Part shown: positions 6,855 through 34,802 of the stretch, piece after piece | Position numbering within the stretch: the stretch's first letter is position 1 | Layout: each line of letters begins with the position of its first letter | DNA from: a bacterium | Lineage (GTDB): Bacteria; Zixibacteria; MSB-5A5; GN15; FEB-12 | Length of the DNA stretch: 42,434 nt | NCBI GenBank assembly: GCA_024230675.1 | Contig: JAAERE010000317.1 | Location: 1 to 42,434, forward strand | Direction: 5' to 3' | Notes under the pieces: generated by a model | Seen by the model: the letters and a program-made list of their open reading frames with translations, nothing else | Told to the model about the DNA's origin: nothing | Database searches by the model: none | Program-made: the position numbers and the translations under genes

Positions 6855-6885
6855 AAAGCGGGTACCCTCAGGGTACCCGCTTTTT
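6855..6885 (+). terminator. Intrinsic terminator after PFOR
   Basis: AAAGCGGGTACCC-TCA-GGGTACCCGCTTTTT. Confidence 0.92.
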
Positions 6886-6985
6886 CTTTGTCCGCCAGCC
6901 TTTTGCCCCTCCTGGAGTCAAGTAATCCGGCCTCCTTTCCGATATAACAAAAAGTTACCGTTATCAGAACTTCTCAGGAGGTAAA

Positions 6986-7828
6986 ATGCTTAAGAAAACG
7001 ACTGCTATCGTGCTGGCCCTTATTTTCGGTCTGGGCATCGGATCGGCGTTTGGACAGGATACCGAGCAGGATATCCTCAACCGATATCTGCAAAAGGCTG
7101 AAGACAAGCACACCACCAAACTTGGCTGGGCCTCGATCAATTTCAGTGTGGACAGAATCAATCGGAACAACACTTACAACAGCTTTGCCACCTATGAGTC
7201 GAGCAATTTCAGCGAGGGCGGTCTGAGCTGGCTGGGCCAGGGATATTCTCTTGGCGTCGAGTTTGGCCTAATTTTCAAACAGGGCGTAACCTGGTCGCTG
7301 GGCGGCGAGTATTGGCTGAAGATGACGGACGAGATCAGCGGCAGCCCTACCTATCTCCCGACCGGCACGCCGGTTGAAAATCCTTCCTCGGAAATACAGG
7401 TTTTCGGCTTCACCACGGGCGTGCAGTATTACCTGATGGGCAAACCGATACCGGCGAAGAAGCTCACCAAGATGGCGGTTCGGGTCGGCGGCTCTGTCGG
7501 CTATTATTCCGCGTCCTGGGACCTCTGGCCGGAGTACCAGAATCTCAATCTGGCAACTGCCACCAGCGAGGAGAACAACATAAGCTATAAGGGCACCGCC
7601 CCGGGCTTCTATTTCAACGTCGGACTAGACTATCCGATAAACTTCTGGGACATGGGCCTGGGCCTGGATATGGGCTATATGCTCCTGAACTTTAAGAATG
7701 TTGCGTGGTATAACGGCAGTGACGAAGAAATAGTCGCCTCCTATAACGGCACTGACGAAGGCCGCGTGGATCTGGACTTTTCGGGCGTCCGCGGCAAAGT
7801 TGAGCTCAAAAGGTATTTCAACTGGTAG
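6986..7828 (+). CDS. Secreted protein, probable outer-membrane beta-barrel
   Basis: Signal peptide (..GSAFG/QD), alternating amphipathic Gly/aromatic-rich strands, and a terminal aromatic strand VELKRYFNW. AGGAGG RBS. Confidence 0.7.
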   Translation: MLKKTTAIVLALIFGLGIGSAFGQDTEQDILNRYLQKAEDKHTTKLGWASINFSVDRINRNNTYNSFATYESSNFSEGGLSWLGQGYSLGVEFGLIFKQGVTWSLGGEYWLKMTDEISGSPTYLPTGTPVENPSSEIQVFGFTTGVQYYLMGKPIPAKKLTKMAVRVGGSVGYYSASWDLWPEYQNLNLATATSEENNISYKGTAPGFYFNVGLDYPINFWDMGLGLDMGYMLLNFKNVAWYNGSDEEIVASYNGTDEGRVDLDFSGVRGKVELKRYFNW

Positions 7829-7853
7829 TCCGTGCAATCGCCCCGCTGGGGGG

Positions 7854-7881
7854 TTGACAGTAGGCTACAGCGCCGTATTAT
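7854..7881 (+). promoter_or_regulatory. Candidate sigma70 promoter for the TolB-like gene
   Basis: TTGACA (7854-7859), 16-nt spacer, TATTAT (7876-7881). Confidence 0.55.
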
Positions 7882-7919
7882 AGGTCCCAAACAAACCTCG
7901 CAATGGAGATTGTCTGGCT

Positions 7920-8975
7920 GTGAAGAAATTACTGCTCAACCCCCGTCTGCTGATTTGGACCGTTACACTATGCATCGGTCTTGCTTCCTTCTCGTGGGCC
8001 GCTGAGAAGATGCCCGCCGAAAAGGCCGGCACGATTGGTGAGCCCACCGGAAAAATCGCTTTCATAAGAGAAAAGAACGTCTGGATGATGGATCCCAGAG
8101 GTGGGAGCCAGATGAAGGTCTGCGAAGCCAATAACGCCGACGGCCGGCTAAGTTGGTCCCCCGACGGCACCGAAATCCTGTTCACGCGCTCGGGACGCGT
8201 TAGCCTCAACGGCCCGAATATGCTGGGCGGCAACCACAAGGTCTACGATATCTTCAAGGCTCTGGTCGATTCGGCCAGGGTGGGCGCCACTTATTTCTGG
8301 TATCAGCTCACCGACGATATGGGCAGCCGTGATCCGGAATGGAGCGCCGACGGTGAGACGGTCCTTTTCTACAAAGACATGAACGCGAACCTGGTGAACG
8401 CTGAGCTTCCCAACTATCAGGTCTGCACCATGAATCCCCTCGGCGACGATGTAACAATCCTGCGCCAGGACTGGCAGAATATGTCGGAGTATTTCATCTC
8501 ACCGACACGCAATGCCAAAGGTGACATTGCGTTTGTGCACTTCGTGACCACTCAGGCGGAGAAGGATCGCCCCGGCGGTTTTAAATCGATTGGTCTGGCC
8601 AAGCTCAACGAAGCCAACTTCATGGCCACTCTCGATGACGTTCTAAAACAGTCCAGCAGCAATCCCAACTCGGTGGCTCCCTCCTGGTCGCCGGACGGCA
8701 AATGGATTGCCTGCGTCAGCAACAAGTTGACCGATCCCGGAATCTACATTACCAGCGCCGATTTCGTGGAAAAATATAAGGTCTTCACACCGCCCCCGGC
8801 GGCTTCGATGTACACGATGGCGCCCTCATTTTCGCCCGACTCCAAATGGATCACGTTTGCTACTACCGACGGTTCCATCTGGATTTGCGATATCACCGGC
8901 AACGGCGCCAAGCGCCTGACAGGCCCCGGACTTGACTTGGCCCCAGCCTGGTCGAAAGGTCCTGTTAAGAATTAG
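7920..8975 (+). CDS. Periplasmic TolB-like PD40 beta-propeller protein
   Basis: Signal peptide, GKIAF, repeated SWSPDG / PEWSADG / PSWSPDGK / PSFSPDSK / PAWS blades. GTG start after GGAG. Confidence 0.85.
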   Translation: MKKLLLNPRLLIWTVTLCIGLASFSWAAEKMPAEKAGTIGEPTGKIAFIREKNVWMMDPRGGSQMKVCEANNADGRLSWSPDGTEILFTRSGRVSLNGPNMLGGNHKVYDIFKALVDSARVGATYFWYQLTDDMGSRDPEWSADGETVLFYKDMNANLVNAELPNYQVCTMNPLGDDVTILRQDWQNMSEYFISPTRNAKGDIAFVHFVTTQAEKDRPGGFKSIGLAKLNEANFMATLDDVLKQSSSNPNSVAPSWSPDGKWIACVSNKLTDPGIYITSADFVEKYKVFTPPPAASMYTMAPSFSPDSKWITFATTDGSIWICDITGNGAKRLTGPGLDLAPAWSKGPVKN

Positions 8976-21112: not shown

Positions 21113-23458
21113 TCAGTATGGGTTTGTACAAAGAGGCGTCAGCGTCATGAACAGATTGTCGACGAGGTACTGGGCATCCGTCACATCGATTGAACCGTCG
21201 CAATTGGTGTCCCCAACCTCCCAGGTTGGTATGGGATCTCCCTCCATGCTGAGAAAGAGATAGCCAATGAGCTGCTGGATGTCTTCGATATCAATTATTC
21301 CGTCCCAGTTCATGTCTCCGACCAGTTTCCATACCTGCAGGCGTACGATAACCTCCTGAGGGCTGTTGGTGGCATCGGGAGCAACCACTTGCATCGTCCC
21401 GACGTACTCACCCAGCGTGTAACCAAGCGGGTTGACGACCAGATCCGTCAGCCCCGGCACTTCGCCGGAGGTCTCCTGGGGAGCCAGCCAGGGAATGGAC
21501 TCAGTGATCTGCCAGGGCATGCAACCACCGTATTCGTTGTAGATATCCGGGCCGTCAATAGTCACCGGACCGGCGTTCTCGCGCCACGGCAGGACTATCT
21601 CCGTCCGCTCAAGGTGAATCACGGGGTCATTAGCGGGCGGCAGGTGATTGTACTGAACCACTATCTGCTGGGGCGAGTTGGCCGCCCAATTCGAAACGAC
21701 GTTGATCGTATCGAAATAGGTGCCAAAGGGCAGATCTACCTGAAGGGCCCTGATACGGACGCTGTTGGTGGCCGGCCCGATATAATCCAACTCAGCCGAT
21801 ATCAGGCCCGGCTCGTAATCGAGTTCCACCGACATGGGGTTGTCGCCCCCGATATTGGTCACAGTAATATCAGTGCTCGGCGCGACCTGTCCATAGCCCT
21901 GTTGACACCCGAACATGTCGAATTCGACGCTGGTCTGGGAAATGTCTATTACAGCCGGGTCATCCACAGCTCGAATCCGGAACCTTACCAGGAAGGGTGA
22001 ATTGATAGCCTCGTTGGAGAACACCTGGGCAACAAAAGTCGTTTCCGCGCCCAGAGGCAGCACACTCTCCAGTATCCCCAGAGAGAGCTCCACCGAATCC
22101 GGCGCTGTAGAAGATGCGGGGCTTACACTCTTGACGAGCGGCGTTTCTTCCACGACCCAGAAATCCATCGCCCCCTCGCCGCTGTTGCGGACCTCAAAAG
22201 ACCGGAAGAAAATGGGCAGCTCGCTAACCGCCACCGGCCAGTAAATGACCGTATCAACGTCGATCATCGGCAGGTCGGTACCGACCACCAGGTTAACAGG
22301 TATTACCACCGGGCTGTTGGCCGCCTCAGCGCTGGAAACGTAGATCGCGTCTGAGTATTCTCCAAACATCAACCCGGTTATGTCGACTTCCAGAAGAACA
22401 TCACCGTCTTCGAAACCGGAACCCGGTGACAGGCTCAGCCAGGAGGAACTGTTGCTCACATCCCAACTGAGAGTTTGGCCGCCAATGTTGGAGATCGATA
22501 GCGTCTGGGTCGCCGGGTTGGCGCCCCCTTCCTGGGCGACGAAGAAAAACTCGCTGGAACTGATCCCTATGACCGGCGGAGGAGGGGTTACATCCAGTTC
22601 TACATACACGTACTGGGGCGAGTTGGACGCGGCCGCCGACTGCACCCGGATGGAATCAAAGTAGACTCCCTCTGACAGACCCAGTGTTGTTACGTTCACG
22701 GTTATCGTAGCCGGCGTCGTCCCTCCGGTCGGAGTTGGGGCCATCCAGCCGGCCGATTCGATCAGATTGAACGCCAGAGGATCAAAATCTGAGAAAACAA
22801 CAAACGTCTGTGAAGTCGGATCGGCAGCGCCCTCGATCGCGCTGAAGCGCACGGTATCGATCGGCACAACCAGATTCGAAGGCGCCGTGAATGAGGTATC
22901 GCGCAGGACCCTCTTCCCGGCCCAATAGGGAATGAACGGCTTGTTCGTTAGATCGTTGAACTTCATGTAGGTACCGCTGCTAAACACAGTGGTATCCAGG
23001 ACGATGGAATCGTTCACCGTCCAATCGGACACAGTGAAGTGGTACGAGGCCACCAGCTTGCGGGAAGGCCCCGGATTGAGTCCCGTACCCAAAATACGGG
23101 CCGCAGCGAACTGGAACACCTGGTAGATATTGGTGCTGTCGAGAATATTGTTGCGCAGAGTATAAGTGAAGAAATCCCAGGAGTCATCGGCGAGAGGCAA
23201 AATAACAGTGGAATCCATCTGCAGATTCGGGTTAACCCATTTGAAACCGCTGGAGACGGAGCCAAGCCCCTGGACATCGTTGTAGATGTACAGATCCATC
23301 TGGAGCTTGTTCTGGCCGGTCGCCACATCAGGGAACACCGGGAATTCCACAGTCAAGGTATCCCACTCGCCCTGGTCGTTTTCTCCCTGCTGGGCCGAGA
23401 CGGAAACCGCGCTCGCCAAGAAAACACACATCAACAGCGTCAACATCTTCCTATGCAT
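21113..23458 (-). CDS. Secreted protein: cohesin-like N-domain, five BACON/Ig-like repeats, C-terminal dockerin-like domain
   Basis: Signal peptide. Five ~100-aa beta-rich repeats each end A.NSP (SNSPQYV, ANSPVVI, INSPFLV, ANSPQQI, TNSPQEV), with W-L-x-x-x-P-x-SG motifs. Tail is GDMNWDGIIDIEDIQ...GDTNCDGSIDVTDAQ. The cohesin assignment is pattern-based inference. Confidence 0.75.
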   Translation of the reverse strand: MHRKMLTLLMCVFLASAVSVSAQQGENDQGEWDTLTVEFPVFPDVATGQNKLQMDLYIYNDVQGLGSVSSGFKWVNPNLQMDSTVILPLADDSWDFFTYTLRNNILDSTNIYQVFQFAAARILGTGLNPGPSRKLVASYHFTVSDWTVNDSIVLDTTVFSSGTYMKFNDLTNKPFIPYWAGKRVLRDTSFTAPSNLVVPIDTVRFSAIEGAADPTSQTFVVFSDFDPLAFNLIESAGWMAPTPTGGTTPATITVNVTTLGLSEGVYFDSIRVQSAAASNSPQYVYVELDVTPPPPVIGISSSEFFFVAQEGGANPATQTLSISNIGGQTLSWDVSNSSSWLSLSPGSGFEDGDVLLEVDITGLMFGEYSDAIYVSSAEAANSPVVIPVNLVVGTDLPMIDVDTVIYWPVAVSELPIFFRSFEVRNSGEGAMDFWVVEETPLVKSVSPASSTAPDSVELSLGILESVLPLGAETTFVAQVFSNEAINSPFLVRFRIRAVDDPAVIDISQTSVEFDMFGCQQGYGQVAPSTDITVTNIGGDNPMSVELDYEPGLISAELDYIGPATNSVRIRALQVDLPFGTYFDTINVVSNWAANSPQQIVVQYNHLPPANDPVIHLERTEIVLPWRENAGPVTIDGPDIYNEYGGCMPWQITESIPWLAPQETSGEVPGLTDLVVNPLGYTLGEYVGTMQVVAPDATNSPQEVIVRLQVWKLVGDMNWDGIIDIEDIQQLIGYLFLSMEGDPIPTWEVGDTNCDGSIDVTDAQYLVDNLFMTLTPLCTNPY

Positions 23459-23804: not shown

Positions 23805-26279
23805 CTATTTCCGGGCCTTCGGCTTGCCCGCTTTCTTGCGCGGACGGACCGCTGTGGGCTTTTTCTTTCGGGCCTTGGCGATTTCCTCGGCGAAGACTTT
23901 CTCAAGGGTGTACGACGAGGGTTTGAAATCAAGCAGGCACAGTTCGAAAAGATCGTCGACTCGCTCGATGAAGTGAAACTTGGTCTTTCGGATGATCTCG
24001 TTAGGCAGATCGCTGAGGTCTTTATGATTCTCGCGCGGCAGGCCGACGTTGTAGATGCCCGCACGGTAGGCCGCGGATATCTTTTCCTTGACGCCGCCTA
24101 CGGCCAGGACGCGCCCCCTCAAAGTAACCTCGCCGGTCATGGCGATATCGTTGCGGATCGGCCGCTCCGACATCACGGAGGCAATAACCAGGCAAACGGT
24201 GATACCGGCTGAGGGACCGTCTTTCGGAATGGCACCCGAGGGAAAATGAATATGAATATCGAACTCGTTGAAATCGTTGGAGTCAATGCCGAGGACATCG
24301 GCCTTGGAGCGAACATACGAATGGGCCGCCTGTATAGACTCGCGCATTACCTCACCGAGTGAACCGGTGGTGATGATCTGCCCCTCCCCTTTCATCCGAA
24401 TACCTTCGATAAACATCAACTCGCCGCCGGCGCCGGTCCAGGCCAGCCCGGCCGCAATGCCTATTTCCGGCACGGTCTCAGCCTTCTCAGGAATAAAGAC
24501 GGTGGTCCCGAGATAGGCCTCCAGGTTCTTCTCTGAGATGGTCCAGCTTTTCTTTTTCTTCTCTGCCTTGGCCAGGGCGATTTTTCGGCATATCCTCTCG
24601 ATCTGTTGTGAAAAGCCGAGCAACCCGGCCTCCTGCGTAAAGCCGCTGATGATCAAGGAAAGAGTTTTGTCGTTCATCCGAACTTCGGATTTTAGCAGAC
24701 CGTGTCTTTTGAGCAGATTGGGCAGGATGTAGCGATTGGCAATGGCTATCTTCTCGCGCTCGATGTACCCTGGCAATTCGATTATCTCCAACCGGGGTAC
24801 GAACTGTTCCGGGATCTCCTCATAGGAACGCACTGAACAGACAAAAAAGACTTTGCTCAGATCAAACGGTACGCCCACGTACTGATCCAGGAATCGAGCG
24901 TTATACCGCGAATCAATCACTTCCAGCAGAGCCATGTTGACCGAAGAATCGTTTTCGACGTTGAAATAGTCGATATCCTCGAGCAGAATCAACGGATCGC
25001 TGCTCCCGGCGTCCCGGAGGGTGCGGATGATTTTGCCCGGCTGGGCCCCAAGATACGTGCGGGGGCTGCCCTTGACATCTGCCACGTCGGTAATACCGCC
25101 GACCGAGATTCTAATAAGCTCCTTGCCGGTGGCGCGTGCGATAGCCTTGGCCAACGAGGCCTTACCGGTTCCGGGCACACCCACCAGACACAGAGTAGGA
25201 GCCTGATCGGCCCCGCCCAGCAGTTTCCGCACCGAGAGGCGCTGAAGGATCTGCTCTTTCAACTTGTTCGGGCCGTAATAGTCGGTATTGAGGATTTTCT
25301 CGGCGTCGGCAATCGTGTAATCTTCGGGCGTGGTCTTGCCCCAGGGCAGGTTAAGCAGCCAGTTGAGATATCCTTTGGTCGCGCCGTACTCGGCCGAGGC
25401 CGGCGACAATTGGGCCAGCCGATCTACTTCCATACGGGCTCGAGCAACTACTTCATGAGGAAGATTGGGCGAGTTTTTGATTTGATTCTTCCAGCGCGCC
25501 GCCTCTTTTTCCTCGCCGAAATCCTCGCCAAGCTGCTTGCGGATTTCATGCAACTGCTGCCTCAGGAAATAGCGGTGCTGGTCCTCGGCGATTCGTCCTT
25601 TGACTTTCTCGTGAATGCTGACCGCCGTGGCAGCCCGGCTGAGTTCGGTATTTAAATGGGTGAGCAACCGATTGAATCGCGGTTCCAGCGCAACAGCCTC
25701 AAGAATCTCCTGCTTCGCAGCCAGCGGGAAGCGAAACGACGCGGCGACCTGATCGGCCAGACACGACGGGTCATCAACGTTCATTTTGAGAACATTGAGG
25801 GTCTCCGGCGAATACACCGGGTCCAGGTGTGTGATTTCGCCCACGATCGACACTACCTGGTTAACTTTTTGATCTATACTCTTGGCGGAGAAACGGAGCT
25901 TGTCCACGGCGTTGGCGGTCGCTTTCAAGTACGGACCGGTAGCAACGATCTTGCTCACCGCCGCCCGTTCGTGACCCTCAAGGGTCACCACCTGCGAGCC
26001 GCCGATGCCTTCGCGCATGCTTTGTACCGTTGCAAACACGCCCACCTGGTGAACCGGCGGCTCCTCGGCGGAGGAATCGCCCGACTGGGAATAGGCGGCC
26101 ACCAGCCGCGATTTGTCGGCATAACATGTTTTCAGAAGGGCCAGATTCTCGGGCCGACCGACCTGAATGGAAATGGTCGTGCCCGGAAACAGGATTCCGG
26201 TCATCAGCGGCAAAAGCGGAAAGGCAACCTCTCTGTCAGTGGCTACCAGCGGCAGACGGGTCTTGCTCTTTATAATCAT
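23805..26279 (-). CDS. lon: Lon protease (endopeptidase La) paralog with degenerate AAA+ motifs
   Basis: Lon N-domain (PLL..GILFPG), [58 protein letters not shown], and [21 protein letters not shown]. Walker A reads GKA and Walker B reads LLED. Confidence 0.93.
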
Positions 26280-26407
26280 ATTCTCCCTCAGTGTCCTTCT
26301 TGTTATCGGACACGAACGGGTTATTTCAAGAGCAAGTAGAGCAGAATCTACATGAGAGTCAACGAATTAGTTTCTGCCCGGCTACCCGCGCCGCGGCGCA
26401 GCGCCAT

Positions 26408-29083
26408 TTAGTTGACCGCTCCGGCCTCGCCCCGACTCTCGAAGATACTCCGGAGCTCGTAATCAGGATGATCCTTGAGGTTGTCCAGATTGAACCTGAT
26501 ACCGTCCGGATTGATATCGAGCCGGTAATAACCCAGACGATTGTTTTCGACCACCGGCCAGTTGGTGCTCATCCCGGCGTTGATCTCGTTTTTCATCCGG
26601 TACAGATAGCGAGCCTGGTTGAAACCAATCTCGATATCCTCCTTGTAAATCCAGCCGGTATCGCCGTTGAGCCGAGACCAGGCCAGCTTGGTCAGGTACT
26701 TAAAGGACTTGCCGGTCAGGCGCACCGGGAAGCCATCGATCCTGACCAGATAGCGGTCCGACTCAAAACGGCCATCGATCTCGACCAGTCTCGGCTGGCC
26801 GCCCATCTTCATCGTAGTGTCTAGAGTTGCCGATCTCATATCAACCTCCTCTTTAAGATTTTGCATTATTTCATTTATTTTCTTCACTTTGCCAGCATCG
26901 CCAACGACCCTATCAATATCCTCCGAGGACAGCGCCGCGAAGTCTTCGGAACCCTCTATCCCCGCCTGATAGAGAGCCGCGAAATCCGAGCGATTGAGCA
27001 CTGAGCCCAGATGACGATGAAGCTGCCGAAATGAGACCGGCAGCCCCCGGCGAAGGCTGAAAGCGTGGCGGACCAACTGGGGAACGGCCGGAGAGTCGTG
27101 ATCGGTGGCCCGAACCAACGTCCCCAGGGCCGAGACAAGATGCGCGGCCGTCTCCCCCAGCGACTGAATCTGCCCCAGGTGCAGCCGATAACGCTCCTCA
27201 AGCTTAGCCACCGGCACCAGGCGGCACCATTCATCCATTAGCAGAGCTGCTTTCAGAGCGGCCGCCTGGCGATATGACAGCGGTTCGCGGCGGTGACTTT
27301 CAGGCAACAGACAGGTAGCCTCTTCGACCGAATAGTCAAATCGCTGGTAAAGCTGCTTAACCGCCAGATTGTTGGCCTGCTCGTACCAGGAGAGAATCGA
27401 AGGCGGCAGCGTCCAATGATCTGAGCTCAGAGCCAGGCAGGTCCAGCCAAAAACCGTTTCCGGGTTAAGATTATCAACCAGCCCCAGATAATGGGCAGCT
27501 TCGCGGACCAAAAGGCCGGATCGGGCTGTTGCTTCGCCACAAGGCGTCGCCACCAGGCCCCCCTCCCTCCCATCGGCGGTGACCATGCGATGGTCCTCAA
27601 GGCCGTCTATGGCCGTCTTAAGGCTATCCGCCGAGAACTCAAGGCCAAGTTTCCCGGCAAACGTCCCGGCCATCAACCGAGCGGCCTCGCTGCGACTTCC
27701 GGCCAGGCCGCTCACAAACAAGTGCAGCAACCAGTCTTCGAGAGGCAGCGTGTCAAGGGCGGACTCAATCGGACGCGGCGGCACCGATCGGATATAGGTA
27801 TCCCAGAGCACCTCCTGATCGAAAGTAGAATCAGCCATGACAATAGCTTTCCCCGGCCGATCGTCGCCAAACCCGAAACGCCCCGCCCGCCCGGACATAT
27901 TGTCGAACTCGGCCCGGCTGATTGGCACCAGCTCGGCGCGATGGCCGTAGGTGCCGCCGGTATACTTGACTGTCTCGAGATATACGGTGTCGGCCGGTAG
28001 GTTCACGCCAAGAGCTAAAGTAGTGGTCGAGCACAGCACCTGAACTTCGCCATTGATAAACGCTTGCTCAACAGCCTTACGCTGCGAAACGGACAGGTCA
28101 GAACTGTGAAAAGCCACTCCCCGGCTTAATGTCCTGTTCAGTGAGCAGAGCAGCGACGAGGGTTCTTCATCGGCAAGCTGTGCTATCGCCTGCTTTGCCG
28201 GTCCCCAATTGACAGCCGTGGCCAGCTTGAGCGCCACCCTGACGGCGTCGGCGCGGGACTTGAGAAAAACCAGAGTCGCTCCCGAGTCAGCTTTGATACG
28301 CTTCACGAAAGACGCCAGAGTATCGTCGTCCTGAGGGCTCAAACCTTCAAAAGGCTCCTCTCCCTCGTGCCCCAGGTTATAGGACCTGAAACACAGTTTG
28401 CCCTCGGCCGCTACGCCCCGGATAAGATCGCGCGGACGGACTGTTTCCTCCACTAAGGTTGCGCTCAGCCAATCGGCCAGTGGTTGGATGCTTCGTTCAG
28501 CCAACACCGCTGAGAGGGCCAACAGGGTGGGCTTGTACTCGGAAGCCAGAATCTTGGTCAGCGTGCGCTCCAGGACCGCTCCCCGGACCGGCTCGGCTAT
28601 CATCTGGATCTCATCAATCACCACCAGGCCGATATTTCTCAATACGTCCAAATGATGCGTCAGAAGCAGATCCATCTTCTCGTTGATAGCCACAGCCAGA
28701 TGATAGTTGCCGTTGGCGAAAGATTCGTCGTTTTCGGGATGATCCCCGGTCGCTATCAGGCATTTGATGCCGAGCGGACCGTAAGTCTGCTGGAACAAGC
28801 GGTATTTCTCCTCAGCCAGCGATTTCATCGGACAGAGCAGAACCGCTTTGCTTCGACGGGTAAGGACGTTGATAGCGGCCAGCTCAGCACAGAAAGACTT
28901 CCCGGAAGACGTTGGCGCCGAGACAATCATGCTACCGGCAAGACCGGTCGAAAGCGTGTCGCCCAGCAGGCCGTGATTGATAGCCCGGCTTTGAACCGGC
29001 AGTAACCGGTCGCCCTGGCGCTGTTTCCAAACGTCGATCATCCGTTGAGGCAGTCCGTATTTGACAAGTTCGTTCAGGTTCAT
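26408..29083 (-). CDS. Ski2/Hel308-like SF2 helicase with C-terminal winged-helix-like domain
   Basis: LLPVQ (Q motif), APTSSGKS, PMKSLAEEK, VVIDEIQ, LSAV, LVFLKSR, STTTLALGVNLPA, and NMSGRAGR. The C-terminal ~140 aa has an OmpR-like pattern (IDGFPVRLT..FKYL..LA...VENNRLGYYRL). Confidence 0.9.
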   Translation of the reverse strand: MNLNELVKYGLPQRMIDVWKQRQGDRLLPVQSRAINHGLLGDTLSTGLAGSMIVSAPTSSGKSFCAELAAINVLTRRSKAVLLCPMKSLAEEKYRLFQQTYGPLGIKCLIATGDHPENDESFANGNYHLAVAINEKMDLLLTHHLDVLRNIGLVVIDEIQMIAEPVRGAVLERTLTKILASEYKPTLLALSAVLAERSIQPLADWLSATLVEETVRPRDLIRGVAAEGKLCFRSYNLGHEGEEPFEGLSPQDDDTLASFVKRIKADSGATLVFLKSRADAVRVALKLATAVNWGPAKQAIAQLADEEPSSLLCSLNRTLSRGVAFHSSDLSVSQRKAVEQAFINGEVQVLCSTTTLALGVNLPADTVYLETVKYTGGTYGHRAELVPISRAEFDNMSGRAGRFGFGDDRPGKAIVMADSTFDQEVLWDTYIRSVPPRPIESALDTLPLEDWLLHLFVSGLAGSRSEAARLMAGTFAGKLGLEFSADSLKTAIDGLEDHRMVTADGREGGLVATPCGEATARSGLLVREAAHYLGLVDNLNPETVFGWTCLALSSDHWTLPPSILSWYEQANNLAVKQLYQRFDYSVEEATCLLPESHRREPLSYRQAAALKAALLMDEWCRLVPVAKLEERYRLHLGQIQSLGETAAHLVSALGTLVRATDHDSPAVPQLVRHAFSLRRGLPVSFRQLHRHLGSVLNRSDFAALYQAGIEGSEDFAALSSEDIDRVVGDAGKVKKINEIMQNLKEEVDMRSATLDTTMKMGGQPRLVEIDGRFESDRYLVRIDGFPVRLTGKSFKYLTKLAWSRLNGDTGWIYKEDIEIGFNQARYLYRMKNEINAGMSTNWPVVENNRLGYYRLDINPDGIRFNLDNLKDHPDYELRSIFESRGEAGAVN

Positions 29084-29168
29084 ACTCTTTCCCCCCGCTC
29101 ATAACAGTGTCGATTAGCTCTGTCGGAAGCTGCCGACCAAAAACGGCCGATCGCTCCCCAGACGCGAT

Positions 29169-29375
29169 CTATATATGGCAGCTTTCAAAACCGCACGATG
29201 GACAGACACAGCAGCGCCCCTGCCGAATCATCCCGCCCGAGCAGTCGGGACAACTGGCCACGTTATGATAGGCATAGTCCTCGTTGCTGATATCACGCTC
29301 GAAGCGCATGAAGGGGCTGTACGAAGTCGGGACCGCCGACACCGTGTCCTCATTGATTCCGTGGAACTGTTCCAT
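29169..29375 (-). CDS. Small Cys-rich Zn-ribbon protein
   Basis: 68 aa ending CPDCSGGMIRQGRCCVCPSCGFESC. GGAG RBS 8 nt before the ATG, directly downstream of a good promoter. Confidence 0.75.
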   Translation of the reverse strand: MEQFHGINEDTVSAVPTSYSPFMRFERDISNEDYAYHNVASCPDCSGGMIRQGRCCVCPSCGFESCHI

Positions 29376-29422
29376 TTGTATCGCTCCGTGTCTGGAAATT
29401 ATCCGATGACTAGCTTAAGGCC

Positions 29423-29451
29423 ACGATACTGCACATCTGTGCAGGTGTCAA
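29423..29451 (-). promoter_or_regulatory. Sigma70 promoter with palindromic operator in the spacer
   Basis: On the minus strand: TTGACA (29451-29446), 17 nt, TATCGT (29428-29423). Spacer 29429-29444 is CTGCACA-TC-TGTGCAG. Confidence 0.72.
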
Positions 29452-29574
29452 GCGAAAAAACAAAAAAACGAGGCCCCGAAAACGTCCGCCCCTCGCTGGA
29501 CCGCTTTCCGGGGCCTGAAGGCGCTGTCCCACAGCACCTTAGCGTAAGGCCTATTCCGACTATTTATGGCCGAT

Positions 29575-30306
29575 TCAGTCGTCCAAAACGAAATCCACCC
29601 GGTAAGTCACCCAGACAGCCACGGGCTCGCCGTTCTGGTTTGCCGGTTTGAAGAGGTACTTGTCGGCGACCTCCAGGGCAGCTCGGTCAAGCAATGGCGT
29701 TCCCGAGGGCCCTATCACTACCGCCTCACGAACCGTACCGATCCTGGTCACCAGCGCCTTTATCCACACGGTCCCTTCCTGTCCGGTCTGCTCGGCGAAG
29801 TGCGGATACTCCGGCGCAACCTTGTGAATAAGTACAGGTATCTCTTCGACCAAGAAGAAGGAGTCTATCGGCGGGAAGTATTCTCCCACGTCCGGGTTGA
29901 CTGCAAACGCCCCCGGCTCCCCCAGGCCCGGGTCCACCCCCCATTCCACGAGCGCCGCCCGATCGGCCAGCGACATAACAACGGCGTCGGGATCGTCGAT
30001 GGCCTCATCTGGCACCGGAACAGGAATGCCGCCGGATAGGTCAGGCGCAGCTGGCCGCGGTCCGGTACGATCGCAAATTATAGTCGGCGGATTAATCAAA
30101 TCGAGATCCACCGTAGTCGTCGGCGGCGGTGGATCGGGCGGCACTTCGACAACCGGCTGATTCTGCATGAATACAAGAGCAGAAACCAACGCGGCCCCCA
30201 CCAGCAAGGTCACCGCAAGGTTGCTCAGCAGGAGGTTTCTCCAATAGGTAGCTTTGAGTTCAAAGGCTCCATATGGCGAGTAAAGGGCGTTTTGAATATT
30301 TGACAT
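29575..30306 (-). CDS. tonB: Energy transducer TonB (paralog 2)
   Basis: YSPYGAFELK N-motif, one TM helix, Pro-rich linker, and PEYP..A...GQEGTVWIKALV...LDRAAL..FKPA.QNG.PVAVWV.Y.VDF. Confidence 0.9.
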   Translation of the reverse strand: MSNIQNALYSPYGAFELKATYWRNLLLSNLAVTLLVGAALVSALVFMQNQPVVEVPPDPPPPTTTVDLDLINPPTIICDRTGPRPAAPDLSGGIPVPVPDEAIDDPDAVVMSLADRAALVEWGVDPGLGEPGAFAVNPDVGEYFPPIDSFFLVEEIPVLIHKVAPEYPHFAEQTGQEGTVWIKALVTRIGTVREAVVIGPSGTPLLDRAALEVADKYLFKPANQNGEPVAVWVTYRVDFVLDD

Positions 30307-30331
30307 GACTGAGTTCCTCCTATTTTTCTGG

Positions 30332-30967
30332 CTAGAGCTCGCCCGACGCCCTCGCCGCCGCCTGGGCGTCCGCCATGATTTTGTCGTCGCCGGTTTCCCA
30401 GTCCCCTATCGCATATCGATAGGAGAACCTGCCGTCCGTTTCGGTCAGGTCCTCGACGTCTATGTCGTTCTGCTGGGCGGTGTAGTCGTTCCATGACCGT
30501 TCAATCACATCGATCTCATCTAACACGTTGACCATGTCTTCGTAGCAGGCATCCGGGTGGATCAGGACCAGCGTGCTCAGCTTGCTGTTGGCCCGGTTTC
30601 GCTCCAGGAGTAGCCCTCGCACGGTATCGGCGTTAAACGCGTAAGGCACCGAGCCAGGGCTGGAAGGCAACAGCTCCGGCAGATTGGCGGGACTTGCCGT
30701 CTTGAGGTGCCACCAGAACCGACTCTCGCTGTCAACCCTGATCGTCATGAGATCCGACTCTCGAATAATGGGTTGATCCTGCGTCCGGGGCAGGTTGATC
30801 TCCATCGCCTGCGGCATGGCAAACACGGTAGAGACCATATAGAATATCAGGAGCAGAAAAGCGATATCGACCATCGGCGTCATGTCGATTCGTACGGCGA
30901 TGCGCCGCTTCGGTCGTCGACCCTTTTTCGAATCCTGTGTCGTTTTCTGTATTACTTCTCCGGCCAT
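30332..30967 (-). CDS. exbD: Biopolymer transporter ExbD (paralog 3)
   Basis: IDMTPMVDIAFLLLIFYMV and YEDMVNVLDE. Start moved to MAGEV (30967) by homology to 32820..33473 and the AAGGAG RBS. Confidence 0.9.
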   Translation of the reverse strand: MAGEVIQKTTQDSKKGRRPKRRIAVRIDMTPMVDIAFLLLIFYMVSTVFAMPQAMEINLPRTQDQPIIRESDLMTIRVDSESRFWWHLKTASPANLPELLPSSPGSVPYAFNADTVRGLLLERNRANSKLSTLVLIHPDACYEDMVNVLDEIDVIERSWNDYTAQQNDIDVEDLTETDGRFSYRYAIGDWETGDDKIMADAQAAARASGEL

Positions 30968-30974
30968 CTTCGAA

Positions 30975-31076
30975 TCACTCTCCTTTCGAAGGGGTCGGAG
31001 AGGTAACATCGGCACGGGTTGCCTTGAATTGGAAGGCTCCGTACGGTGCGTACGGCGAGAAATTGGCGTCTGGCAT
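30975..31076 (-). pseudogene. 33-aa ORF resembling a TonB N-terminus (remnant or small peptide)
   Basis: Hand translation gives MPDANFSPYAPYGAFQFKATRADVTSPTPSKGE*, compared with ALYSPYGAFELKAT in the neighbouring TonB. A GAGGGG RBS-like sequence lies upstream. Confidence 0.65.
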
Positions 31077-31342
31077 AACCGCTTCCCCTCTACTGCGGGT
31101 TTGTGTTTTACAGGCGTCGAACCTTACCCGGCTCGTAGCCACAGACGCTTTGCAGATACTATTCTCTTGGTGCTTGGTGAGGGCTTAGAATTGGGGTGAG
31201 GGGCTCCCGCCGTCCGTGTCCTTCCCCCTCTCTAATATAAGGACGGACCAGCTCTATTGTTCGTGCAACGTCAGGTTCGCCGATCCGAACAAAAGAACGC
31301 GGACGCCGGGCGAGTGTTGCTCCTTTCGAACAGCGTTCGCAA

Positions 31343-31849
31343 CTAGTCTTTTGCTTCGATTCTCGGAAGTTTGAAGCTGACTTTGTAGTCCACCCACACC
31401 GCTATTGGACGCATATCCTTGATGGCCGGTTTGTATAGGTTCCGGACGGCAGCCTTCACAGCGGCCTCATCAAGCCTCGAGAATCCTGAGCTTCGGTGAA
31501 CGACCGCCCCATATACCCCTCCGCCCTGACTGACGAGAACCTTCATCCATACCTCGCCCTCGACGCCAGCGGCCGCCTCGGCACTGGGATATTTCGGAGC
31601 CGCTTCCTTTAAGGCTTCCGGCGGAAGGTCAACTTCGACTGCGGCGTCCAGGGGCGGGGGCCCTTCGTAATCAGTCTCATGAACGAAAAGCCGAAGCGGC
31701 ACTTTTGCATCATCGCCCAAAGGCTCGGAGGCGGCCAGAAACAGAGTTGCCGCGATACCCAGGACTACAATTCTACACGGCTTCAATCGAGCCTGGTTTC
31801 CGCGCCTGGCCCGGGAATATCTGCGCGAAACGCAATTAGTAATCGACAT
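31343..31849 (-). CDS. Short TonB C-terminal domain protein
   Basis: Hydrophobic N-segment, then PKYP..A.AAGVEGEVWMKVLV...SSG..RLDEAAVKAA...YKPA...PIAVWVDYKVSF. Start at 31849 follows a purine-rich RBS; 31894 is also possible. Confidence 0.85.
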   Translation of the reverse strand: MSITNCVSRRYSRARRGNQARLKPCRIVVLGIAATLFLAASEPLGDDAKVPLRLFVHETDYEGPPPLDAAVEVDLPPEALKEAAPKYPSAEAAAGVEGEVWMKVLVSQGGGVYGAVVHRSSGFSRLDEAAVKAAVRNLYKPAIKDMRPIAVWVDYKVSFKLPRIEAKD

Positions 31850-31971
31850 GAGATTCTCCCCTCTGTCCTGGCGGCGTATTTCGATGAGTCCCACCGCGCT
31901 GTTCGGTTACCCTATGGAATCAAGACGCCCATCCACGGGTGTTTGTGCGTCCAAGATTTCGAGGCTCAAAC

Positions 31972-32003
31972 AAAAAAAACGCCCGCGCAAGGCGGGCGTT
32001 TTT
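31972..32003 (-). terminator. Intrinsic terminator after tonB paralog 1
   Basis: AAAAACGCCCGC-GCAAG-GCGGGCGTTTTT with an A8 run. Confidence 0.9.
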
Positions 32004-32028
32004 GAAATCACGTGGTATATATCTAATT

Positions 32029-32760
32029 CTAGTCCGGTACCTGGAAGTCGACCTTGTAAGTCACCCACATAGCTACCGGTCGCCCGTTCTGAATAGCCGG
32101 GCGGAACTTGTTGTCCTTGGCGACCTTCAGGGCGGCCTCGTCGAGAGACTGAGTGCCCGAAGATTTATAGACAACTGCCTCGCGGACGTTACCGTCGGCG
32201 CTGACCAGAGCCTTGATCCATACCAGACCTTCCAGCCCGGCTTGTTCAGCCAGACGCGGATATTCCGGCTGCACATGTTGAATCATCTGGGCGATTTCTT
32301 CCACCGGCACGAACTCGTCGATAGAAGGCAGGTAGTCTTCTTCGTTAATGTCCACGATGATATCATCCGAAGCATCGCTGACGATATCCGGAGCGACAAT
32401 CTCGGCCATCTCTTCACGGGTGGCCAGCATGACGTCATCGTCCATAACCTCGTCGTCGGCAACCGGCTTGGGGATACCGACTTTGGGGGCCTGTACGTTC
32501 GGTTGATCGACCTTCACCTGCGGCGGTTTCTTGACGATGGCCGGCGGCGGTCCCAGGTCCGCGATGGTCTGAATAACCACCGGAGCGTTACCGCCGATAA
32601 CGACGTCGTCCTCCATCGCAGCGATTATCCAGAAGGTGGCCAGTATCGCCAGTACGAAAGCCAGCATCGACAGCGATGCAATGCCAAAATTCCGCTGATA
32701 CTTGGCTTTGAGTTCAAAAGCTCCGTACGGTGAATACAGGGCATTTTCCATGTGTGACAT
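32029..32760 (-). CDS. tonB: Energy transducer TonB (paralog 1)
   Basis: YSPYGAFELKAKYQR, TM helix, Pro/acidic linker, and a TonB_C domain PEYPRLAEQAGLEGLVWIKALV...FRPAIQNGRPVAMWVTYKVDF. Confidence 0.92.
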   Translation of the reverse strand: MSHMENALYSPYGAFELKAKYQRNFGIASLSMLAFVLAILATFWIIAAMEDDVVIGGNAPVVIQTIADLGPPPAIVKKPPQVKVDQPNVQAPKVGIPKPVADDEVMDDDVMLATREEMAEIVAPDIVSDASDDIIVDINEEDYLPSIDEFVPVEEIAQMIQHVQPEYPRLAEQAGLEGLVWIKALVSADGNVREAVVYKSSGTQSLDEAALKVAKDNKFRPAIQNGRPVAMWVTYKVDFQVPD

Positions 32761-32819
32761 GACTACTATCCTCTAATTTCTAAAGACACCGTTCCCAGAG
32801 CGGGGCCACAAAAGTCCGT

Positions 32820-33473
32820 CTAAAGCTGTCCTGCCGCCTGGGCCGCACCCAGAGCCGCCGACATGACGTTATCATCGCGGGACTCCCAATCGCCGATTGC
32901 ATAGCGATAAGAAAACTTGCCGTCTTCCTTGGTCAAATCTTTGACCTTTTTATCGAGCCCGTCCGCAATATGGGCATTCCAGGAACGCTCGATAACGTCA
33001 ATTTCATCCAGGATGTTGACCATATCGTTGTACTTTGCGTCTTGCTGAATCAAGATCAGAGTACTGAGTTTAGCGTTGGCTCGATTCTGCTCAACAAGCA
33101 GCCCCTGTAGCGTATCAGCGTTGAATGCGTAAGCCACTGAGTCAGCCTTCTCGGCGCTGGTCGGCAGGAGCTTCGGCATGTTGTCCGGCGTCGCCCTTGC
33201 GATATTCCACCAGTACCGGCTCTCGCCGTCGACACGAATAGTCAGCAGGTTCGATTCCTTGATCTCGACAACCTGTTCCTCTTCCTCAGCCGAGGGCAGG
33301 TTGATTTCCATCGCCTGCGGCATGGAAAACACGGTGGAAACCATATAAAAAATAAGAAGCAGGAAAGCGATATCAACCATCGGCGTCATATCGATTCTGA
33401 TAGCGATACGCCGTTTTGGTCGACGGCCTTTTTTGCCGCCTTTCGCTGCTCTTTCTGCAACTTCGCCAGCCAT
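32820..33473 (-). CDS. exbD: Biopolymer transporter ExbD (paralog 2)
   Basis: IDMTPMVDIAFLLLIFYMV, INLP, and AKYNDMVNILDE. Confidence 0.92.
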   Translation of the reverse strand: MAGEVAERAAKGGKKGRRPKRRIAIRIDMTPMVDIAFLLLIFYMVSTVFSMPQAMEINLPSAEEEEQVVEIKESNLLTIRVDGESRYWWNIARATPDNMPKLLPTSAEKADSVAYAFNADTLQGLLVEQNRANAKLSTLILIQQDAKYNDMVNILDEIDVIERSWNAHIADGLDKKVKDLTKEDGKFSYRYAIGDWESRDDNVMSAALGAAQAAGQL

Positions 33474-33548
33474 TTCTATTCACTCTCCTTTCGGCAGGGC
33501 CGGAAGTCCAGGGACTTCACGCCGGCCGCCGGGGCGGGTTCCCCCACC

Positions 33549-34040
33549 TTAACTTTCTTCAGCCTCGCTCGAGGTTTCGACCTCGTTGTCGGTAATAATC
33601 AGGAAGCGCTCCAGGCTGTTTTCCTGCATCTGTTTCATGATGGCCTGCATGGTGCCGAAGCTGGCGTCCTGGTCGGCTTTCATAACTACCAGGGCGCGGT
33701 GATTATCGGCTCGAGCCCGGTTGAGTTCGCTGGCCACACCGTACTTGTCGGTCTTAACGACGGAACGCCCTTTGGTTGTCACCATTTGACCGTCGATCTC
33801 AATCGTCACCAGCTTGACCATGTCCACATAGATCGAGTCGTACTTCGTCACCGTAAGGTTGATAACGTCCTTATCGGGCAGCTCGATCTGGGAGTGTGAC
33901 TCGGGAAGATCCACGGCACGCGCTTCCGGTGGCTTGAAGGTGGTCGTCGCCATGTAGAAAATCAGAAGCAGAAAGGCGATATCCACCATAGGCGTCATGT
34001 CGATCCGGATGGCTACCCGACGTTTCTTCTTAATGGCCAT
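33549..34040 (-). CDS. exbD: Biopolymer transporter ExbD (paralog 1)
   Basis: IDMTPMVDIAFLLLIFYM, VDLP.S, and VVMKADQDASFG. Confidence 0.93.
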   Translation of the reverse strand: MAIKKKRRVAIRIDMTPMVDIAFLLLIFYMATTTFKPPEARAVDLPESHSQIELPDKDVINLTVTKYDSIYVDMVKLVTIEIDGQMVTTKGRSVVKTDKYGVASELNRARADNHRALVVMKADQDASFGTMQAIMKQMQENSLERFLIITDNEVETSSEAEES

Positions 34041-34043
34041 CGG

Positions 34044-34802
34044 TTACTTTCCTTCTTTAAGCTTCAACAACTGAATCACCTCAAAAGTTGCCTCATCGGT
34101 GGTGTAGTTGAAAGCGTCAACCTTGTTAACAAAGAAGTTATAGAAGAAAATACCGAGAATACCGGACAAAAGACCACCGGCCGTGTTGATCAGGGCCTCA
34201 GAAATACCGGTCGCCAGCGCGGTAGCATCGATAACACCGCCCTCGACGTCGCCGGTAGCGGCAAAGGCACGGATCATACCGATGGTAGTACCCAGAAGGC
34301 CGACCATGGTAGCGATCGAGGCGATCGTGGAAAGAGCGATCAGGTTACGCTCCAGCAGCGGTCCCTCGAGAGCGTTGGCTTCTTCGATAGCCGACTGCGT
34401 GAGTTGGATCTTCTTTTCAGAGTCCATGCTGCCGTCACCTCTGACCTCTCGGTACCTCTCGATACCGGCGCGCAGGACGTTGGCCGTTGTGCCACGCTGC
34501 TTATCGCAGGCCGCAAGAGCGGCGTCGTAGTCGTCGGACTGCAGCAGAGTAATGAGCTTCTTGAAGAATATCTGGATGGAGCTCTTGCCCTTGGCGACCG
34601 CGTACAATGAGATATAGCGCTCGATCACAAAGACCATGCACATGATGAAGATCATGATAAGAAGAACAACGAGCGGTCCACCCTGGTAGATCGAGTGAAC
34701 GATCGGATTGTCTGAGGTTCTGAATACTCCGTAAAAGAGTCCGAACCCGATAGCTAACGCCACAAAAGCGTTGAGACTTACAAATAAGGTCTGCTTAACC
34801 AC
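34044..34802 (-). CDS. exbB: MotA/TolQ/ExbB proton channel
   Basis: GGPLV..L, IERY, LSTIASIATMVGLLGTTIGMIRAF, and GISEALINTAGGL. GTG start after GGAGG. Confidence 0.94.
   Translation of the reverse strand: MVKQTLFVSLNAFVALAIGFGLFYGVFRTSDNPIVHSIYQGGPLVVLLIMIFIMCMVFVIERYISLYAVAKGKSSIQIFFKKLITLLQSDDYDAALAACDKQRGTTANVLRAGIERYREVRGDGSMDSEKKIQLTQSAIEEANALEGPLLERNLIALSTIASIATMVGLLGTTIGMIRAFAATGDVEGGVIDATALATGISEALINTAGGLLSGILGIFFYNFFVNKVDAFNYTTDEATFEVIQLLKLKEGK

Follow-up and report, generated by a model that had tools for sequence, protein, structure and literature searches.

The window analysed here is the whole 42,434-nt stretch formed by positions 1 to 42,434 (forward strand) of contig JAAERE010000317.1, from GenBank assembly GCA_024230675.1 of a bacterium of the phylum Zixibacteria (GTDB lineage Bacteria; Zixibacteria; MSB-5A5; GN15; FEB-12). 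Its minus strand contains three co-oriented open reading frames (ORFs), coding in order for a small Zn-finger protein, a helicase of the Hel308 family and a paralog of the protease LonA, here called LonX; the genes are separated by 85 and 128 nt, and they are preceded by a promoter that encloses a palindrome. The elements of the locus are the following:

29423-29451, minus strand: sigma-70-type promoter found by consensus scan, with TTGACA at 29451-29446, a 17-nt spacer and TATCGT at 29428-29423.
29429-29444, minus strand: operator, a 16-bp palindrome CTGCAC-N4-GTGCAG (CTGCACA-GA-TGTGCAG) that fills nearly the whole promoter spacer.
29169-29375, minus strand: Zn-finger protein, 68 aa.
26408-29083, minus strand: Hel308-family superfamily 2 (SF2) helicase with an additional C-terminal domain, 891 aa, the helicase part being residues 1 to ~750.
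26504-26797, minus strand: predicted OmpR/PhoB-type winged-helix domain, residues 763-860 of the helicase, assigned by fold match.
23805-26279, minus strand: LonX, 824 aa, with N domain, AAA+ module, lid and S16 protease.

The reading that we regard as the probable one, though well short of assured, is that the Zn finger and the winged-helix helicase form a LexA-repressed SOS unit, core to Zixibacteria, to which the Lon paralog is linked by position alone. The initial annotation of this DNA had described the three genes with their short gaps and no terminator between them, a TTGACA-N17-TATCGT promoter with a palindromic spacer, and a parts list of Zn-ribbon protein, Hel308-like helicase with winged helix and degenerate Lon. 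The ORF positions and the scans agree with the first two descriptions, no terminator-like site being found by scan in the two intergenic gaps of the window, and the parts were recognised by Pfam and NCBIfam profiles, by fold match and by an alignment in which 19 of 19 LonX orthologues share the degenerate motifs. It had also placed all three genes under one promoter, as a DNA-damage or anti-phage unit; these proposals fared less evenly, as described below.

The palindrome is beyond chance, because the 2.75-Mb genome contains its strict 14-mer at just two places, in the window and in a variant contig (C408), and because it recurs in all of the related helicase loci: the 16-mer is found at three mismatches or fewer, and in the same promoter register, in 30/30 of them (window included), each time framed by TTGACA and TAT(n)nT. 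In some loci the two half-sites have changed together (CTGAAC..GTTCAG), a symmetry that fits a site for a dimer. Contig C408 of the same genome (locus L152), 718 bp long, carries a second copy, about 88% identical, of the terminator, promoter, operator, Zn finger and helicase start, and is most likely a co-binned strain variant; its operator is identical to that of the window, while its -10 reads TATACT.

A canonical LexA is encoded in the genome (209.5 bits, cut-off 110.95), with the AG cleavage site, the Ser and the Lys visible. The lexA promoters of relatives have the same build in 26 of 30 cases, with TG(A/C)(A/C)C-N4-G(T/A/G)(G/T)CA placed within the spacer; of the four others, three lack anything similar and the fourth has a weaker -35. 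A search of five near-complete genomes with a loose promoter-plus-operator pattern gave 15 matches, five non-palindromic and ten palindromic, the latter lying at the helicase unit (five), at lexA by coordinates (three, in G011, G039 and G052) and at genes left unassigned (two); among the other occurrences of the strict 14-mer in five genomes, the 11 loci inspected are intragenic and devoid of promoter context. An earlier matrix built from the helicase sites alone was too narrow, since lexA's own site fell under its threshold. Besides lexA, a good operator-like site precedes by 22 nt an ImuA-like gene of this genome, which matches NF033429 over profile positions 8-180 of 181 (E 3.5e-10, under the cut-off) and has a PolIV-like reading frame after it; the pair lies at 291-1224 of contig C420 (L156), and the corresponding loci of relatives are L159 and L160. 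A search for the imuA-like gene in five genomes found it in two (G011 and G108), and the palindrome stands upstream of it in 3/3 genomes having the gene, this one included. Together, the ImuA-like and PolIV-like genes probably form an imuA-imuB mutagenesis cassette that belongs to this regulon.

The operator is thus common to the helicase loci, to lexA's own promoters and to a gene of canonical SOS type, a distribution that makes the 16-bp palindrome very probably the Zixibacterial LexA box and the helicase unit a predicted member of the SOS regulon; this agrees with the DNA-damage regulation that the initial annotation had supposed. According to PMC3091678, the LexA boxes of Bacillus subtilis (CGAAC-N4-GTTCG) and of cyanobacteria (RGTAC-N3-DGTWCB) are likewise palindromes of 14-16 bp with an AC-N4-GT core, whereas the half-sites here read CTG(C/A)AC. 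The same genome also contains short contigs (C291, C197, C434 and C570; L151, L153) in which a 279-bp unit is repeated in tandem (89% matches), with an operator-like 14-mer and an 88-aa ORF in every copy. The LexA box of Fibrobacter type has the form TGCNC-N4-GTGCA; it was not found in the literature searched.

The Zn-finger protein consists of a variable N-terminus and of a C-terminal array, C-x2-C-x9-C-x2-C-x2-C-x4-C, whose six Cys are invariant among 22 aligned sequences. It has no match in Pfam; with NCBIfam its C-terminus aligns to the final 40 positions of the profile for class II ribonucleotide reductase (RNR), and the genome's own class II enzyme, NrdJ, carries the same six-Cys pattern at its C-terminus. 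The likeness extends to the position of the six Cys at the extreme C-terminus and to the M(I/V)R-G-C-x2-C-x2-CG pattern of the NrdJ Cys-rich domain; unlike this domain, however, the protein is free-standing, 45-150 aa long and coded upstream of a helicase, and it is doubled in distant families. It is taken as the product of a real gene because the differences between the window and contig C408 across the Cys domain look synonymous, by eye, and because a Zixibacterial cluster of it, with 64 members, exists in the Atlas. From its sequence, the Zn finger appears to correspond to the Cys-rich tail of class II RNR, coded on its own, and would bind Zn. In distant families (L099, L101, L104-L109) its counterpart ahead of the helicase gene has two CxxC...CxxC modules, making a doubled Zn ribbon in place of the single six-Cys finger.

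The likeness to this tail raises the question of whether the protein acts on the reductase rather than with the helicase, as a free Cys-rich tail that works in trans on class II RNR and tunes the supply of deoxynucleoside triphosphates during SOS. Besides the match with the C-terminus of the genome's NrdJ, this is suggested by NrdJd, whose six-Cys array, according to PMC5704485, binds Zn and transfers electrons, also between subunits. The gene, however, lies directly upstream of the helicase, at 10-400 nt and behind the same promoter, in 28/29 near loci and in 10/16 loci of distant families, and the doubled ribbons of the distant forms are unlike an RNR tail; an action in trans on the reductase is therefore improbable. 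A complex prediction for helicase and Zn finger gave a score of 0.22 (mark 0.32), which counts neither for nor against binding.

As for the helicase, its SF2 motifs are intact, including I (APTSSGKS), II (DEIQ) and VI (GRAGR), and Pfam recognises the DEAD and Helicase_C domains; public annotations name it only "DEAD/DEAH box helicase". The NCBIfam profile PRK02362 aligns over positions 4-750 with 285.2 bits, and PF21280 (Hel308 domain 4) matches the C-terminal part with 27.8 bits, at a cut-off of 27. The best solved relatives are the archaeal Hel308/Hjm structures 2zj2, 2va8 and 2p6r, with residues 41-726 aligning to 40-669 of 2p6r, while HamB, the helicase of the Hachiman defence system, ranks far lower in the same search (68.6 bits). 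By these matches the domain layout is also that of Hel308, in which a winged helix, the ratchet (domain 4) and a C-terminal helical domain come after the RecA folds.

Beyond this layout the protein carries a further domain. An AlphaFold2 model of residues 700-891, built from 45 sequences, has a mean predicted local distance difference test (pLDDT) of 88.5; when residues 763-860 were compared with solved structures by VIA-align, the best match was BaeR (4b09_A, Z 9.9, root-mean-square deviation 2.5 A over 90 residues), and the 50 matches listed all belong to the OmpR/PhoB/CadC/ToxR/EmbR/AfsR class (Z 9.9-6.4, 76-118 aligned residues). The sequence of the tail matches no Pfam family, Trans_reg_C included, at E up to 10; the PDB sequence profile gave no meaningful match, and the Foldseek E-values are weak. 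The modelled C-terminus is accordingly assigned to the OmpR/PhoB-type winged helices (beta-sheet, helix bundle containing the recognition helix, and C-terminal wing) by the fold match, which confirms this class for the prediction. A profile of the tail domain retrieved 715 matches at E<=0.001. The domain also occurs in stand-alone proteins of ~120-160 aa (P0150, P0199, P0208 and P0270) that belong to no Pfam or PHROG family; one stand-alone tail protein (locus L154), on a phage-like contig, has a DUF5131 gene on one side and a GpA-type terminase on the other.

Within the order, the helicase was detected in 60/61 genomes; its tail domain was detected in 261/285 genomes across the phylum, and in 190/198 when only high-quality ones are counted. 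The 16 loci taken from other families all have the helicase, 11 with a box-bearing promoter (strict pattern), 10 with a Zn-finger ORF (often a doubled ribbon) and three with an adjacent Lon paralog; LexA box, Zn finger and helicase are firmly the conserved core. The other genes of the window are housekeeping (PFOR, chorismate synthase, aminopeptidases, ExbB/ExbD/TonB sets and a MurJ-like flippase), and no mobile or defence genes were seen elsewhere in the window. Single-copy and nearly universal, the unit belongs to the core genes of the phylum and has a housekeeping setting; it is not a mobile defence island, because of this neighbourhood and of the spread of the tail domain.

This distribution bears on the anti-phage function that the initial annotation had suggested, which would make the unit a defence system related to Hachiman, with a HamB-type helicase. 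The two do share a Ski2/Hel308-like helicase core, and the PADLOC HamB profiles match it (best E 1.2e-34, 117.7 bits). Yet the archaeal Hel308 matches are stronger and full length; PADLOC gave no hit on the Zn finger and, on Lon, only one to the protease part of BrxL, so that no system emerges beyond these two similarities; no HamA-like partner or mobile gene is present among the neighbours (HamA was not searched genome-wide), and the gene, unlike Hachiman, is neither mobile nor patchy. A Hachiman-like defence role is highly improbable, and the suggestion is not supported.

LonX is a LonA by architecture, with LON_substr_bdg, AAA, Lon_lid and S16 protease domains and 713.7 bits with TIGR00763 (cut-off 608). 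Its ATPase module, however, lacks residues of a competent LonA at Walker B, sensor-1 and sensor-2. In LonX and in all of the 19 aligned orthologues Walker A reads GKA, the Walker B DE is replaced by ED, sensor-1 is CSVRS in place of TTAN, with loss of the Asn, and sensor-2 is EAGLL in place of EAGLR, with loss of the Arg; all of them retain the Ser-Lys protease dyad, and LonX also keeps the Walker A Lys and the pore-loop Tyr. A canonical Lon with all the usual ATPase residues is encoded on contig C5 of the same genome (956.8 bits). A precedent is LonC of Meiothermus taiwanensis, which, according to PMC3391209, is able to bind nucleotide but is devoid of ATPase activity, and whose proteolysis is limited to unfolded substrates. 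By analogy, LonX probably binds ATP without hydrolysing it and cuts only unfolded proteins. LonC itself forms its own clade and has no canonical AAA+ motifs, while LonX is a LonA with point-wise residue loss; judged from its domains, it does not have the N-terminal fragment without AAA+ motifs that distinguishes LonC.

How far LonX belongs to the unit was judged from gene order and from the helicase-Lon gap. In 52/60 genomes of the order, as read from coordinates, helicase and LonX share contig and strand and are at most 3.3 kb apart, with a short gap in 46 and one of 1.0-3.2 kb in six; in the other eight, the helicase contig ends (three), the two genes are on different contigs (three), or the match for helicase (one) or for a LonX-type protein (one) is missing. 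Among the 16 loci of distant families, those with an adjacent Lon paralog belong to f5, f9 and f10. LonX-like proteins with a broken Walker B lie on other contigs in G087, G226 and G268, the rest having only canonical-looking Lons. The gap of the window, and the leader downstream of the operator, contain related elements:

26303-26362, minus strand: helicase-Lon intergenic elements, with a -35-like TTGACT at 26362-26357 and CCGATAA at 26309-26303.
29399-29405, minus strand: leader motif CGGATAA (rGCCGATAa in relatives), ~17 nt past the -10, seen by eye in ~20/30 loci.

By eye, the short helicase-Lon gaps of relatives contain TTGAC(A/T) in 11/16 cases (plus the window) and CCGATA in 13/16; no LexA box is present in the helicase-Lon gap. 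A terminator-like hairpin precedes Lon in L069 by scan, in L086 where it was called on the opposite strand, and in L089 by eye only, while L068 has none. Two of the longer helicase-Lon gaps were examined: L067 contains, at 6856-8610, a SocA/Panacea antitoxin-like gene and a PD-(D/E)XK nuclease, and L074, at 6990-7766, an ORF without Pfam family. In most relatives the CCGATAA-like motif (rGCCGATAa) occurs twice, once shortly beyond the -10 of the LexA-box promoter and once 10-35 nt ahead of the start of the Lon paralog; genome-wide, CCGATAA-type motifs show no positional peak upstream of ORFs. The motif could be the site of a second regulator or an RNA leader element.

The flanking genes are also syntenic, with TonB upstream in 14/29 loci and a BACON-domain protein after Lon in ~12/29; in the distant families, f9 has both TonB and the BACON-domain protein again and f10 the latter, and in f19 an unlinked LonX-like gene is still followed by an M1 peptidase homologue. 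As these unrelated genes are kept together as well, the conserved adjacency of helicase and Lon may be inherited gene order. The coupling of Lon to the helicase is only positional, given the adjacency in 3/16 distant loci, the promoter-like element of its own and the synteny of unrelated neighbours.

This result bears on the view of the locus as a three-gene machine, in which the helicase, working on damaged DNA, would deliver or expose stuck proteins to a motor-less Lon, for instance in the repair of DNA-protein crosslinks, with the Zn finger as adaptor. Such a machine is suggested by the pairing in the 52 genomes and in f5, f9 and f10, and by the fact that all LonX-like proteins examined have lost the Walker B Glu yet keep the protease dyad; the niche seems to be open, since a 2026 review (PMC13705206) reports no clear evidence of dedicated crosslink proteolysis in bacteria. 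However, Lon is non-adjacent in 13/16 distant loci, where box and helicase persist, LonX-like genes are found on other contigs in the three genomes named above, Lon has a promoter-like element of its own, hairpins or inserted genes separate it from the helicase in relatives, and synteny extends equally to TonB, the BACON protein and the M1 peptidase. The three-gene machine is unlikely. A bolder form of it, in which an SOS-induced Hel308-type motor would drive the ATPase-less Lon ring by moving along damaged DNA and feeding DNA-bound or crosslinked proteins to LonX, as a bacterial counterpart of helicase-assisted crosslink proteolysis, the six-Cys finger would be adaptor or redox switch and CCGATAA would be the winged-helix site tying the two promoters together, is a speculation to which we give little credence. 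Of the initial annotation's unit under one promoter, LexA box and helicase persist across families and the closeness of helicase and LonX holds within the order; the inclusion of Lon was weakened by the distant loci, by the synteny of the flanking genes and by its own promoter-like element.

In the LexA-repressed unit that we favour, LexA bound to the 16-bp palindrome would block RNA polymerase; upon DNA damage, RecA-triggered self-cleavage of LexA would open the promoter, and derepression would lead to the synthesis of the small six-Cys Zn finger and of the Hel308-family winged-helix helicase. By analogy with Hel308/HelQ and with the damage-induced bacterial Lhr, the helicase would most likely be loaded on single-stranded DNA where forks have stalled or crosslinks have formed, and would unwind in the 3'->5' direction; both this polarity and DNA, not RNA, as the substrate are assumptions. 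The winged helix may provide a grip on duplex DNA, and the Zn finger may act as an accessory or redox-sensitive subunit. LonX, which has a promoter-like element of its own, may gain read-through during SOS.

Some observations weigh against this picture. The helicase scores far below the NCBIfam equivalog cut-offs for Hel308 (285.2 against 887 bits for PRK02362, and 218.4 against 1200 for NF040935). LonX orthologues mostly retain the Walker A Lys and the Arg finger, the loss of ATPase being read from the motifs. Since no terminator is seen in the gap, co-transcription of helicase and Lon is possible in the window. Finally, the recA upstream regions of two relatives, by eye, are without such a box, which makes the regulon unusual and another regulator conceivable. 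The palindrome might then be bound by a regulator other than LexA that controls lexA too, the assignment to LexA being drawn from sequence; this is, however, a poor prospect, as the site is found at lexA and at the imuA-imuB-like cassette, both classic LexA targets, and has the geometry of a LexA box.

If the unit is LexA-controlled as proposed, it is of the damage-inducible (SOS-regulated) repair helicase operon kind, of which an example is lhr-nei2 of Mycolicibacterium smegmatis; according to PMC13705206, this operon is damage-inducible and combines a large SF2 helicase, which protects against crosslinkers, with another enzyme. That enzyme is a glycosylase, not a Zn finger or Lon as here, and the NCBIfam Lhr-type profile TIGR04121 gives only 64.8 bits on the helicase. 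The core of Lhr resembles that of Hel308. Close relatives are also archaeal Hel308/Hjm and the helicase domains of HelQ/PolQ, which share the SF2 motifs and the full multi-domain layout; the protein described here differs from them in being bacterial, in its sub-threshold scores, in the additional OmpR-type winged helix, in its putative LexA control and in its Zn-finger gene partner.

No paper joining LexA, the SOS regulon and Hel308 was found in the literature searched, although the supplementary regulon tables of PMC8565304, outside this search, might list similar helicases in related phyla; likewise, the search found no paper on a Zixibacterial SOS system. Within this literature the unit is undescribed, in agreement with the initial annotation, which knew of no system with this combination; the link with Lon is possibly the more novel part.

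The genes around the unit complete the picture of the locus. Directly upstream, at 29575-34802 (minus strand), three TonB-C-domain genes are interleaved with three ExbD genes, plus one ExbB; the tonB-like gene next to the Zn-finger unit has its stop at 29575 and is followed by one further element:

29454-29515, minus strand: terminator-like hairpin and T-run after the tonB-like gene, seen by eye as GGCCCCG...CGGGGCC and then a T-rich run.

The hairpin is kept in contig C408; the terminator scan overlooked it, its loop being long. On the other side, Lon is followed at 21113-23458 (minus strand) by the gene for a 781-aa protein with weak BACON and dockerin matches, preceded by a near-consensus promoter-like sequence, TTGACA-18-TATATT, at 23724-23695; this BACON-type protein still adjoins the Lon paralog in the distant families f9 and f10.

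Taken at the strength given above, these findings give an initial picture of the SOS network of an uncultured phylum, in which the genome's best putative LexA box guards neither recA nor uvrA, but an archaeal-type helicase that is fused to a DNA-binding domain of response-regulator style and paired with a free RNR-type zinc finger. LonX defines a LonA clade whose ATPase, judged by its motifs, is disabled throughout, and it lends itself to asking what a Lon ring does without its motor; if its link with the helicase were functional, it would bear on the dedicated bacterial proteolysis of proteins stuck on DNA.

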